From: Microcoleus sp.
GTDB taxonomy: Bacteria; Cyanobacteriota; Cyanobacteriia; Cyanobacteriales; Microcoleaceae
Assembly (NCBI GenBank): GCA_042408215.1
Contig: JAYFMW010000022.1
Location: forward strand, 1-64,000
Length of the DNA: 64,000 nt
Direction of reading: 5' to 3'
The position numbers and the translations under genes were made by a program. Within the stretch, counting starts at the first letter, position 1. Each line of letters starts with the position of its first letter. Shown here piece after piece: positions 4,937-38,190 of this stretch. The notes under the pieces are model-generated. The model saw only the letters and a list, made by a program, of their open reading frames with translations, made no database searches and was not told the origin of the DNA.

Positions 4937-6199
4937 ATGTTACTTAGTTTCAAAACGGAATTAAAACCTAACAACAAACAGGTGACAATATTTCGACAGC
5001 ATTGCGGAGTAGCAAGACACGCTTACAACTGGGCGAATTCAATCATCCTTGAAATATTAACAATCAGGGAGACGGATCAAAGCGTAAAGCTCCCTTCTGC
5101 CATTGATTTACACAAACGTTTAGTAGCGGAAGTCAAACCTCTGTATCCCTGGTATTATGAGTCTTCCAAGGCCAGCCCACAGCAGACTATAGTTGAATTG
5201 AGGACAGCTTGGGATAGATGCTTCAAAAAGGTATCTAAACAACCTAGATTCAAAAAAAAAGGTGTATCAGGTGACTCTTTTTATCTAGAGCAAGGAACCA
5301 AAGCAAAGCCAGGAATTAATAACGACGGCAAGCGCATCAAGTTACCTAAGATTGGTTGGGTTAGGCTGCACGAACCATTACCTATTACGGCGTTCCACAA
5401 CTGCGTAATCAGCCGAAAAGCTGACAGATGGTTTATTGCTTTTAAGTGCGAGATTGAGCAACCCGCAATTCTATCTAGCCGTCCTACCGTTGGTGTCGAT
5501 ATCGGTATCAAAGAATTAGCTGTTTGTTCTAATGGTCAAACTTTTGCTAATCCAAAGGCTTATCGTCGGATGAGCCGTAAAATGAAACATCTGCAACGAC
5601 GTGTCAGCAAACGAGTCAAAGGTTCTAATCACCGCAAAAAAGCAGTCTCAAAACTAGCCAAACTACACCTAAAAGTATCAAATATCCGAAAAGATGCTAT
5701 TCATAAGCTAACAACTTACCTCGCCAAAAACCACAGCGAGGTCAAGATTGAAGACTTACAAATTAAAGCATTTTTGAAGAACCACAAGCTAGCCGGTGCG
5801 ATCGCTGACTGTGGAATGTACGAATTCAAGCGTCAACTTGAATATAAAACCAAAAAGTTTAACTCAAAATTGACGCTCATAGATCGATTCTTTCCTAGCA
5901 GTCAAATCTGCTCAAATTGTTGTAATCATCGGCACAGAATGCCATTAAAACGTCGAGTTTTTGAATGCCCCAACTGTGGAAACATTCAAAATCGCGACCT
6001 AAACGCTGCGAAAAATATAGAACGTTGGTTTGAAGGAATATTTATTCCAGAACATTCAGAATTGGCGGTGAGTTCCACCGTGTCAGCCTGTGGAGTAGAC
6101 AAACCCGACAGCAGTCATGTTGTCGCTACTGTGAAACAGGAAGTTAACACCACAAGCACTCATGTCCAGATAAGTTTAGACTTGGGTAGCTATGGGTAA
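4937..6199 (+). CDS. tnpB: RNA-guided endonuclease TnpB (IS607 type)
   Basis: MLLSFKTELKPN start (4922 also possible); RuvC motifs VGVDIG / IEDL / RDLNAA intact; zinc finger CSNC..CPNC. Confidence 0.93.
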   Translation: MLLSFKTELKPNNKQVTIFRQHCGVARHAYNWANSIILEILTIRETDQSVKLPSAIDLHKRLVAEVKPLYPWYYESSKASPQQTIVELRTAWDRCFKKVSKQPRFKKKGVSGDSFYLEQGTKAKPGINNDGKRIKLPKIGWVRLHEPLPITAFHNCVISRKADRWFIAFKCEIEQPAILSSRPTVGVDIGIKELAVCSNGQTFANPKAYRRMSRKMKHLQRRVSKRVKGSNHRKKAVSKLAKLHLKVSNIRKDAIHKLTTYLAKNHSEVKIEDLQIKAFLKNHKLAGAIADCGMYEFKRQLEYKTKKFNSKLTLIDRFFPSSQICSNCCNHRHRMPLKRRVFECPNCGNIQNRDLNAAKNIERWFEGIFIPEHSELAVSSTVSACGVDKPDSSHVVATVKQEVNTTSTHVQISLDLGSYG

Positions 6200-21317: not shown

Positions 21318-21712
21318 CTGTAAAAAGTCCTTTTTAACTAGACAGGTGGGAATCCCCACAGCATAATCTTTGATTATGCTGTGGGATGAGAGCTGCGCTC
21401 CTCATCGGAGCGACCCAGAATGCGATGTTGGGCCTTGCCAACCAGCATTCTTTGGGTGGCGAGGAAACTCGCACTCTGAGTCATAATTCTGGTAAAATAC
21501 TCGTATCTTGGATCAAAGAATCACAATCTGGGTCTAAGTAAAAACCTTTCATGTGACAAGTGGGGCAGGTCGCGTTCCTCACTATAAAACGCCGTAGATG
21601 GAAACAATTGGAGTACCTCGAAGGAAGATCTTGATATCCACAGGCCGGACTCAGATGCCCAAACCATACCCAAAGGGTTGGTGTGGGAGCGTCACTTGCT
21701 AATCGGGAATTG

Positions 21713-21954
21713 GTAATAGCTGGTAAAAGTATAGTCATCTATTACAGTGCCATGGGAGGCGTTGAGTCCCTCCCCTTTCGCTTTCACTTCGAGCGGATTA
21801 ACCCGCCTCGGCTGAACTACGCAGCTCTCTATCAAGAGTGCTAAACGCATTTGGGATTGCTTTTCTCAAAATATTGTAAGACCCGTTAACATCGGCGTTA
21901 ATCAATCGACCCTTCTGACTATATGATACTACCATTGTCTATTGATGCTTACAA
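21713..21954 (-). mobile_element. TnpB 3'-end/omegaRNA-like remnant with its own promoter
   Basis: Minus strand reads YSQKGRLINADVNGSYNILRKAIPNAF / SCVVQPRRVNPLEVKAKGEG (TnpB RuvC-III tail); TTGTAA-17-TAGTAT directly upstream; terminal hairpin gtaatag..ctattac. Confidence 0.7.
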
Positions 21955-21970
21955 TCTTAATGAAGTTTTA

Positions 21971-22168
21971 TAATACCAATTTAATGTGAAGTTACATATA
22001 TTCCGATCCCCCTAAATCCCCCTTAATAAGGGGGATTTTGAGAAGAATCTTGTCCCCCCCGAATGTAGGGGCGGTGCCTGTGAGTGCCCGCCGTTGGCTA
22101 GGGGGGATCGGAAAGACTGTAGGCTCAGACAGTAGGCTGGTACTACCTTTGAAATTAAGTTGACACCA
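21971..22168. repeat. Composite of MITE ends, gatcccc hairpin repeat and REP-like unit
   Basis: taataccaatttaa.. start, gatccccctaaatcc, gtaggggcggtgcc, ttaagttgacacc end. Confidence 0.6.
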
Positions 22169-22346
22169 ATCCAGGAGAAGCCGCCTCAAAGATACAAGTT
22201 CAATGCACAACAGCCTGTTTGGCAATTGATTATTGGCGATCGGCGATCGGCAATAATTATGATTATGCCAGTCTCTAGTCCGAAGATCGGTGACTAATGA
22301 CTCCAAATCTGCCAATTACCAATCACCAATTACCAATTTCTAATTT

Positions 22347-36911: not shown

Positions 36912-38138
36912 CTATTTAAGCAGATCAAAAATTGACAACTGCTTAAATTCTGGTTGGGTTGACGCTTCAATGGCTACTGCTACCTTGGCGGTAGTCTTAC
37001 GTCTACCTCCACGTCCGTTTAGAGTCTCCGAAAGCCCTCCGGCGACCTTAATATTAATTGCAGCGTTAACATCTCTATCGTGATAACTGCCACAATTAAG
37101 ACAAATCCACTCTCTAACATTTAACTCTTTTTTGCCACCGCGAAAACCACAGCAAGAGCAAGTCCCAGAAGTGGGAGTCCATCTATCAATCACTCGAAAA
37201 TCACGACCGTACATTACCGACTTAGCCTCTAACATAGTTCTAAAACTACGCCAGCCTAAGTCGCTAATAGCACGGGACAACCTGCGATTTTTCATCATAC
37301 CTGAAACATTCAAATCTTCCAAGACTATTGTTTGGTTTTCACGAATAATCTTAGTTGACAGTTTGTGAATAAAATCATTTCGAGTATCAGAAATTTTAGC
37401 GTGAAGTTTAGCTAATTTTTTTCTAGCCACTTCCCTTCTTTTACTCCCTTTTTGTTTTCTTGACAAATTGCGCTGTAATTTTCTTAAACGCTTTAACTGT
37501 TTCTTTAAAGGTTTAGGTGATTTAACTTTTTCACCGTTACTTAAAGTAGCAAAATCAGTTATTCCTAAATCAATTCCTACACTTGAACCGTTCTTAGGTA
37601 ATTGTTGAGGATTAAACTCAACGACAAAGCTAACAAAGTATCTATCAGCACTATCTTTGATGAGGGTAACACTGGAAGGAATAGCTGGTAATTGTCTACT
37701 CCAGATTACTTGGATATCACCTATTTTAGCCAGGTAAATATAATCAGAATCAGGAGCGAGTTTAAAACCATTACCAGTGAACTTAGCAGACTGTTTAGAC
37801 TTACGTTTTTTAAATCTAGGCGGTTTAACTTTCTTGCCTTTTCTTTGTCCTTTACAAGATTTGAAAAAGTTTGAATAAGCCTGCTCTAAATCTCTCAAAG
37901 ACTGTTGCAATGGAATAGAGGAAACTTCTGTTAACCATTGTTTTCCCTCCGTTTTTTTGATTTCTGTAAGTCTTTTAGAAAGTTCAATGCTAGAAGGTTT
38001 TTTATTCCCGTTTTGCTCCTCCTGTTTGCAATATGCTAAGGCATCGTTAAAGACTACCCGACAACAACCAAACAATTGAGACAAAAGCCTCTTTTGTTGG
38101 GTTGTTGGGTAGATTCGATAGCGATACCTTAATTTCAT
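36912..38138 (-). CDS. tnpB: RNA-guided endonuclease TnpB (IS605 type)
   Basis: YRYRIYPT..FGCCRVVFN; RuvC VGIDLG / LEDL / RDVNAA intact; zinc finger CSCC..CLNC. Confidence 0.95.
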   Translation of the reverse strand: MKLRYRYRIYPTTQQKRLLSQLFGCCRVVFNDALAYCKQEEQNGNKKPSSIELSKRLTEIKKTEGKQWLTEVSSIPLQQSLRDLEQAYSNFFKSCKGQRKGKKVKPPRFKKRKSKQSAKFTGNGFKLAPDSDYIYLAKIGDIQVIWSRQLPAIPSSVTLIKDSADRYFVSFVVEFNPQQLPKNGSSVGIDLGITDFATLSNGEKVKSPKPLKKQLKRLRKLQRNLSRKQKGSKRREVARKKLAKLHAKISDTRNDFIHKLSTKIIRENQTIVLEDLNVSGMMKNRRLSRAISDLGWRSFRTMLEAKSVMYGRDFRVIDRWTPTSGTCSCCGFRGGKKELNVREWICLNCGSYHDRDVNAAINIKVAGGLSETLNGRGGRRKTTAKVAVAIEASTQPEFKQLSIFDLLK

Positions 38139-38190
38139 TGACTTATTTTGCCCTGGGAATACACTCTAATTATAGAGTTGCTTTTAGAGT

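Follow-up and report, generated by a model that had tools for sequence, protein, structure and literature searches.

What becomes of a transposon nuclease gene when only its tail is left behind a promoter, and does such a remnant still serve as a source of guide RNA? The question is raised by a short minus-strand stretch in the window, the 64,000 nucleotides of a Microcoleus sp. contig (JAYFMW010000022.1) that were analysed as a whole. An earlier note had placed there, at 21954-21693, a promoter fused to the last codons of a tnpB gene, and had read it as an RNA-only cassette produced by an independent reduction. The actual limits are 21976-21716, and the stretch is almost certainly a 261-bp non-autonomous mini-element of the IS607 family, an internal-deletion derivative.

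A 261-bp IS607-family mini-element

The element lies in the intergenic space that separates a YlqD gene from a dihydrolipoamide acetyltransferase (pdhC-like) gene, and is built, in order, of GTAT, a left end of ~66 bp with a promoter, a junction, the last 195 bp of tnpB and GCTAT. Its parts are as follows.

21973..21976, minus strand: target motif GTAT, the predicted TAM, whose last bases are common to the right end GCTAT
21911..21972, minus strand: IS607-family left end with a subterminal TAAAAC motif, the promoter and the old ribosome-binding region of tnpA; the same left end is on full-length copies
21949..21954, minus strand: -35-like hexamer TTGTAA (4/6 consensus bases)
21926..21931, minus strand: TG-extended -10-like hexamer TAGTAT after a 17-nt spacer, at a conserved place in left ends
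21908..21919, minus strand: deletion junction with microhomology (about 8 nt in the closest parents), identical in 17 copies
21716..21910, minus strand: right end, the last 195 bp (65 codons) of tnpB, ending in GCTAT; untranslatable, with no start codon

BLAST of the 7.36-Mb genome (G000) recovers 17 copies with one identical internal junction, both genes being lost in each. These copies are 92-100% identical to each other (mean 95.6%), differ in their flanks and occupy 15 distinct insertion sites, each insertion being precise and always behind GTAT. Two pairs share flanks on both sides (C22:98602 with C4:20694, and C28:280068 with C23:4343) and, to judge from those flanks, are larger segments duplicated or assembled twice. 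Two further short copies have other junctions (C30:626562, 272 bp; C7:175429, 283 bp). The search for cognate full-length genes and additional short copies that had been proposed earlier thus yields 19 full-length parents in addition to these, and what the genome holds is one breakpoint shared by 17 copies, not a unique copy with a random breakpoint. At the orthologous site the insertion is missing in 29 of 29 relatives examined. Other tnpB-like stretches in the window lie at 1443-1553, 4937-6151 and 36915-38144.

Sequence variants are mixed in mosaic fashion among the mini copies, which suggests gene conversion. At columns 117-156 and 211-216 of alignment A1 the same multi-base variants recur across many lineages and are mosaic among copies, one of them perfecting a small inverted repeat (12/68 rows); these recurring variants may have arisen by template switching or gene conversion.

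The 19 full-length copies have the same two ends; 18 of them, of ~1.41-1.43 kb, have tnpB as their sole gene (the left end of one holds an additional insertion) and the remaining one, of 1.95 kb (C5:466592), has tnpA preceding tnpB. This tnpA encodes a serine resolvase (Pfam Resolvase PF00239, E 7.8e-16) and is the only cognate tnpA in the assembly. Codon 159 of this gene is a premature stop, which makes present-day mobility doubtful. The other IS607 transposases of the assembly are 27-44% identical to it over their main matches, and uninterrupted tnpA genes with the same ends are found in relatives (L129, L021). The family thus shows the features of IS607 elements: a serine-recombinase TnpA and a TnpB in the parents, and a short core common to target and right end without target duplication. 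The mini-element itself has no nuclease ORF, the cognate nuclease genes lying elsewhere in the genome.

The parental TnpB matches PF01385 and PF07282, and 13 of the 19 long copies have open tnpB ORFs of 403-439 aa. All 13 encode IDLG, IN[AS]D and a glycine at the usual RuvC-II position; the protein has neither the canonical RuvC-II glutamate nor zinc finger cysteines. A shifted glutamate, in QEESY, is present in 12 of the 13, and these 12 hold all three predicted catalytic residues (D, shifted E, D). By analogy with related nucleases, the cognate TnpB would be expected to cleave DNA. Its named relatives are mostly from Microcoleus, Tychonema and other Oscillatoriales, and a PDB sequence search with it gave no match. 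A second tnpB subfamily with the GTAT left-end motif and a different right end occurs at C1:61968, C5:404476, C12:30769, C16:16486 and C28:303277; its right end finishes in CTAT in one clear copy (C12), and it may use the same transposase.

Ends, junction and promoter

Among 80 related loci, 72 of 75 detected left ends start with GTAT and 74 of 77 right ends close with GCTAT; outside these motifs the sequence is not fixed. Of 95 copies of the host repeat that lies upstream of 21976, almost all of them element-free, 85 end in GTAT, and empty repeats have a single GTAT; the motif therefore belongs to the target. We infer from GTAT and GCTAT a common TAT/AT crossover core. In the window this repeat, a palindromic host sequence with hundreds of copies, occupies 21977-22190 and its end supplies the GTAT. 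A long copy (C20:431155) is inserted at the same host-repeat end, and relatives carry other repeats at the same intergenic site, which is a hot spot.

The tnpB tail GRLINADVNGSYNILRKAIPNAFS described earlier, running from 21911 without a start codon, is confirmed at 195 bp, or 65 codons where ~60 had been counted; the open stretch on the minus strand reads GRLINADVNGSYNILRKAIPNAFSTLDRELRSSAEAG up to its stop. The right end is 77-93% identical to the right ends of the 19 full-length copies. A frameshift had also been reported, and it is real as a +1 shift relative to the commonest long copies; it is not a sign of decay, as the one-base-longer variant also occurs in open full-length ORFs (C29, C5). 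At the join, GGAGGGTC occurs both in the left ends of the C20 and C3 copies and in tnpB of the C6:302471 copy. Since the closest parental left ends and the parental tnpB both have this sequence there, the junction suggests a microhomology deletion that would have fused the left end with the final 195 bp of the gene. Everything upstream of the RNA-encoding region had been thought lost, which is wrong for the 66-bp left end. The gtaatag/ctattac hairpin taken for the terminus draws its last three bases (21715-21713) from the flank, and both arms occur in no other of the 17 copies; this hairpin is peculiar to the 21976-21716 insertion and was rejected as a feature of the element.

The minus-strand promoter (TTGTAA at 21954-21949, a 17-nt spacer, TG-extended TAGTAT at 21931-21926) is present as first described. 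It has 8 of 12 consensus matches and is absent from the two sites listed by a consensus scan. The motif TG-n-TAnnnT occupies the equivalent position in 47 of 75 left ends, compared with 7 of 588 windows of flanking sequence, and support for the promoter comes from this conservation, not from the consensus score. In autonomous copies the motif is located ahead of the tnpA start. The hexamers would thus represent the element's native promoter, since full-length copies have it; no new promoter fusion has taken place, and a captured host promoter is ruled out for the same reason. Transcription is predicted to start near 21919, and the promoter is directed toward the dihydrolipoamide acetyltransferase gene ~600 bp downstream.

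A predicted omegaRNA scaffold

The right end of the element may encode an omegaRNA, for which we drew a fold by hand from an alignment of related right ends.

21716..21864, minus strand: predicted omegaRNA scaffold of about 149 nt, 36 pairs
21825-21811, minus strand: predicted hairpin whose loop GTAGTT (21820-21815) would pair with the last six bases (21721-21716) as a pseudoknot
21806-21793, minus strand: predicted hairpin, drawn from the alignment
21787-21781 with 21729-21723, minus strand: predicted core stem, enclosing a hairpin at 21774-21754 and a weak last hairpin
21696..21715, minus strand: predicted guide, 20 nt of host flank lying between two elements; the opposite strand would serve the neighbouring IS605 element as guide

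The model consists of three upstream hairpins, a core stem around two hairpins, and the pseudoknot between the second hairpin loop and the last six bases. The alignment has 69 rows, namely 68 of the 77 right ends and the copy at 21976-21716; the nine right ends left out are mostly shared-site duplicates. Over the 68 distinct rows, 96.7% of cells are paired, compared with 40-50% in slid controls, and none of 500 shuffles reached the model on three of five measures. Two-sided change is seen in three pairs (five cells), two of them in the core stem and none in the pseudoknot. The covariation support for the predicted fold is modest, the model being derived from the same, closely related sequences. 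RNAalifold gives a consensus of 23 pairs, one with two-sided change. In a single-sequence free-energy test the folded RNA was no more stable than shuffles (z = -0.38), and an Rfam search gave no match near the gathering score.

All 17 copies keep the pseudoknot (6/6 pairs) and the core stem (6-7/7), with 6/6 and 7/7 in the copy at 21976-21716. The first hairpin has 3 of 5 pairs in 10 of the 17, this copy included, and the third hairpin 2 of 4 in 10 of the 17; the broken-hairpin variants of the minis also occur in parents. Contigs from RNA runs span the junction in three of four runs, but the spanning contigs include promoter DNA upstream of the predicted start, so that DNA carry-over or read-through would fit. 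Loose ends in these contigs match the flanks of two other mini copies. In run X8 the right end is covered without the left, a signal indistinguishable from that of full-length copies.

Independent deletions across the genus

The right-end motif is found in 69 of 79 genomes of the genus, and a pattern requiring both ends within about 440 bp matched 11 of the 79. Seven independent junction classes emerge: the main one, one in G003, two G000 singletons, and classes of 307 bp, 383 bp and 340 bp (G081), so that two extra junctions come from G000 and four from relatives. The main class occurs in G000, G005 and G008, and hence also in two other species; the 307-bp class represents one locus in four genomes, and the 383-bp class five loci in three genomes. 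Contig-end right-end matches in G009, G012 and G019 were excluded from the breakpoint count, as were right-end-only fragments without a left end (L018, L024, L027, L029 and one on C11 of G000). Apparent scaffold deletions at G008:C186 and G005:C584 proved to be assembly gaps, and both are counted with the main junction. In the 383-bp class (L035, L036, L041, L043, L045), ~90 bp between the ends has no match in parents, and the tnpB remnant is decayed with the scaffold region kept.

All seven deletions retain about 170-280 nt of the right end, past the scaffold start, with differing right breakpoints, and five of the seven break 55-66 nt into the left end, just beyond the -10 box; CboIStron, by comparison, requires no more than 40 and 60 bp of its ends for excision. 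Under a null of uniform breakpoints these patterns have p = 0.004 (right end kept) and p = 0.0004 (left break) for the seven classes, and p = 0.02 and 0.001 when the count is restricted to the five classes that the unbiased pattern recovered by itself; the tests are post hoc and concern few events, and hot spots could mimic the result. That seven deletions all keep the whole predicted scaffold, and that five break just past the promoter, hints at selection for the RNA. We consider this pattern the best evidence that the putative RNA cassette, beyond the ends alone, is kept. The earlier view of a recurrent RNA-only cassette therefore holds in outline, with 17 copies, further recurring junctions and a predicted scaffold that is always kept; its notion of a one-off independent event gives way to a mobile internal-deletion derivative.

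Guides and the neighbouring IS605 element

The predicted guide starts at 21715, differs between copies, and is ancestral host sequence in relatives that have neither element. For none of 37 guides does an unbroken match at a genomic GTAT site extend beyond the first 10 bases. The guide of the 21976-21716 copy has one genomic GTAT site at 14/16 matches. That of C6:340638, a mini that sits in a multicopy repeat, has 28 such sites at 14-15/16, each with a mismatch in the first 8 bases, possibly a trace of selection against self-cutting.

On the far side of the guide lies a second protein-less element.

21338..21695, plus strand: protein-less IS605-family element of 358 bp, with a left-end hairpin at 21338 and a right end ...GAGCGTCAC at 21695
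21333-21337, plus strand: its target motif TTTAA (TTTAG in relatives)

Its left hairpin and tnpB-tail stretch match a full-length IS605-type tnpB element on C6; by that match it is of IS605/TnpB type, and an assignment as an IscB element was ruled out. With a Y1-type parent and subterminal hairpin ends it fits the description of PATEs. It, too, is absent from the site in 29 of 29 relatives examined, and contigs of RNA runs X8 and X10 join 21336 to 21696. This copy stops 19 bp short of the start codon of the pdhC-like gene and has, on the plus strand, a promoter-like site (TAGACA-17-CATAAT). It belongs to a protein-less family of at least five members with varied lengths, hairpin ends and a TTTAG target (21338-21695 in the window, C30:582612-582855, C28:326401-326758, C3:52551 and C5:448464, all in G000).

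The two elements stand tail to tail, their right ends facing each other 20 nt apart, and both predicted guides come from the same 20 bp. Their joint absence from the site in all 29 relatives is compatible with either order of insertion. C30 holds a second tail-to-tail pair, also present in G005, whose spacer is different and 22 nt long. At a distance of 15-25 nt, such a partner accompanies 2 of 39 right ends in G000, versus 0.1% of non-ORF GTAT sites. In 78 other genomes, with 314 exact right-end matches, only the G005 orthologue of the C30 pair was found and none in the other 77, a result weakened by fragmented assemblies; tail-to-tail pairing as a general rule was set aside. These pairs are more simply read as crowding in a repeat hot spot. 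Other IS607 copies are likewise close to IS605-type right ends: one lies within such an end, another 3 bp behind one, and a third tail to tail with one at 43 bp (C11:4883, C14:96669, C3:437038), placements that from their sequence context appear to be general crowding of IS607 and IS605 elements. Because the pair spacings of 20 and 22 nt equal the distance from the TAM at which a rearranged TnpB cuts, a break at one element's empty site may be proposed to have recruited the other, which would leave two nuclease families guarding one common guide. We think this combined reading unlikely, in which IS607 minis are repeatedly selected as promoter-plus-guide cassettes and TnpB cutting also shapes where other elements land.

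Proposed mobilisation in trans and its alternatives

Our preferred reading, to which we give a probability of about 0.6, is that TnpA-S mobilises the mini-element in trans, and that parental TnpB carrying the mini's RNA guards it against loss upon excision. It would then be a parasite of its full-length parents, supplying ends and RNA while the parents supply the proteins. By analogy with characterised IS607 elements, TnpA-S would excise the mini in circular form, so that GTAT and flank become joined, and the circle would insert at new GTAT sites. The left-end promoter would give an RNA of ~200 nt plus 17-20 nt of flank, which TnpB from a full-length copy would trim and load. The loaded TnpB could cut the empty GTAT-plus-flank site on the sister chromosome, upon which repair would copy the element back, and GCTAT, instead of GTAT, ahead of the guide template would spare the filled site. 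That the minis made, or still make, working guides in trans is on balance probable by the same analogy; for the 21976-21716 copy today guide function is less so, because its first hairpin is altered and the flank-dependent hairpin may compete.

A plain MITE-like IS607 derivative, moving by both its ends with promoter and RNA as passengers, is the main alternative, possible but less probable. The clustering of breakpoints would then reflect microhomology, transposase-linked hot spots or a transposase that needs a long right end. Microhomology is indeed clear at the main junction. In parents lacking tnpA the loss of that gene falls at the same point on the left, a possible hot spot; moreover, TTTTAC in the right end corresponds to the left-end TAAAAC in inverted form, and could be retained as a protein-binding site. 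Variants that disturb the scaffold are frequent in minis, a G003 derivative has a 137-bp insertion in the scaffold, and the 307-bp class has a changed -10. Such an account sits less easily with a scaffold kept in all seven deletions although their right breakpoints vary (about 170-280 nt), with the intact pseudoknot and near-intact core stem of all 17 copies, and with the retention of TAGTAT at 46-51 in both amplified classes.

A domesticated or regulatory cassette, whose RNA would direct a non-cutting TnpB to host targets or whose promoter would drive or interfere with the pdhC-like gene, is very improbable. The missing canonical glutamate and zinc finger cysteines of the cognate TnpB would suit it, as would a promoter aimed at the dihydrolipoamide acetyltransferase gene, but the shifted glutamate is retained in 12 of 13 ORFs, the guides are mere flanks that differ per copy, the insertion is missing from the site in every relative examined, and the guide of the 21976-21716 copy has no long GTAT-adjacent target. 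Least credible is a one-off decayed tnpB fragment beside a chance promoter-like sequence: for all that the promoter reaches only 8/12 of the consensus, a single junction repeated in 17 copies, precise ends at 15 sites, and the recurrence of that junction in two other species rule it out.

Relation to known systems and significance

Mobilisation in trans with a guide RNA would place the mini-element near several described systems. According to the main text of Meers et al. (PMC10055086), PATEs, which are protein-less IS200/IS605 derivatives, often encode omegaRNAs that would need TnpB in trans, and standalone omegaRNAs are described as working in trans (Altae-Tran et al., PMC10691335). The mini resembles these, as far as their open texts go, in being protein-less, in keeping both ends and an omegaRNA (predicted here), in having many copies beside nuclease-encoding parents, and in its predicted use of transposase and nuclease in trans. 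Unlike PATEs as there described, it has an IS607-type parent with a serine recombinase, which places it outside that class; its ends are not Y1-read hairpins, it has a core common to target and right end, and it is a visible internal deletion with a native promoter about 55 nt before the predicted scaffold.

The closest mechanistic parallels are CboIStron and ISXfa1. In the available text on CboIStron, the TAM is TGGG and the right end TCGG, with a common core, excision needs only 40 and 60 bp of the ends, and protection from excision loss by TnpB is shown in cis (10.1101/2023.11.20.567912); ISXfa1 is described with a 144-nt scaffold and a required pseudoknot next to the guide (10.1101/2023.08.09.552727). 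Judged by those texts, the mini shares with them a serine transposase, a target motif and right end that agree in their last bases and differ further upstream, a pseudoknotted RNA of about 145-150 nt (predicted here) over the tnpB 3' end, and a guide in the right flank. It differs in having GTAT/GCTAT, not TGGG/TCGG or GGG/CGG, in having no intron and no genes, and in a cognate TnpB with a shifted RuvC-II glutamate, DLG in place of DPG, and no zinc finger cysteines. A comparable rearranged RuvC-II layout is reported as active in TvTnpB, which cuts 21-22 nt from the TAM (PMC10530073). As that text describes TvTnpB and TnpB2, the cognate TnpB is like them in that glycine occupies the canonical RuvC-II position and a conserved glutamate follows some 45 residues further on; TvTnpB, unlike it, is IS605/Y1-associated with the TAM NTGAC (PMC10530073). 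TldR-like repressor loci, so far as the accessible descriptions tell, are immobile, with a nuclease-dead TnpB and a fixed host-target guide, whereas the mini is mobile, its guides vary and the shifted triad is present in 12 of 13 ORFs.

A search of mainly open-access main texts turned up no natural protein-less omegaRNA element derived from IS607; PATE figures in the Extended Data of PMC10055086 may be relevant here. Going by those texts, the principle of protein-less omegaRNA elements is already published for IS200/IS605, and the mini would be its IS607 variant.

The finding would extend the protein-less guide-RNA lifestyle from IS200/IS605 to IS607 elements, a moderate gain given that the principle is already in print. 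The seven breakpoints form a natural deletion series that brackets the parts required: a left end of about 60 bp that includes the -10 box, and a right end of 170 bp or more. The element further offers a new predicted TAM (GTAT) and a predicted scaffold for a clade of 400-residue TnpBs with a rearranged active site, for which a compact guide cassette may thus be at hand.
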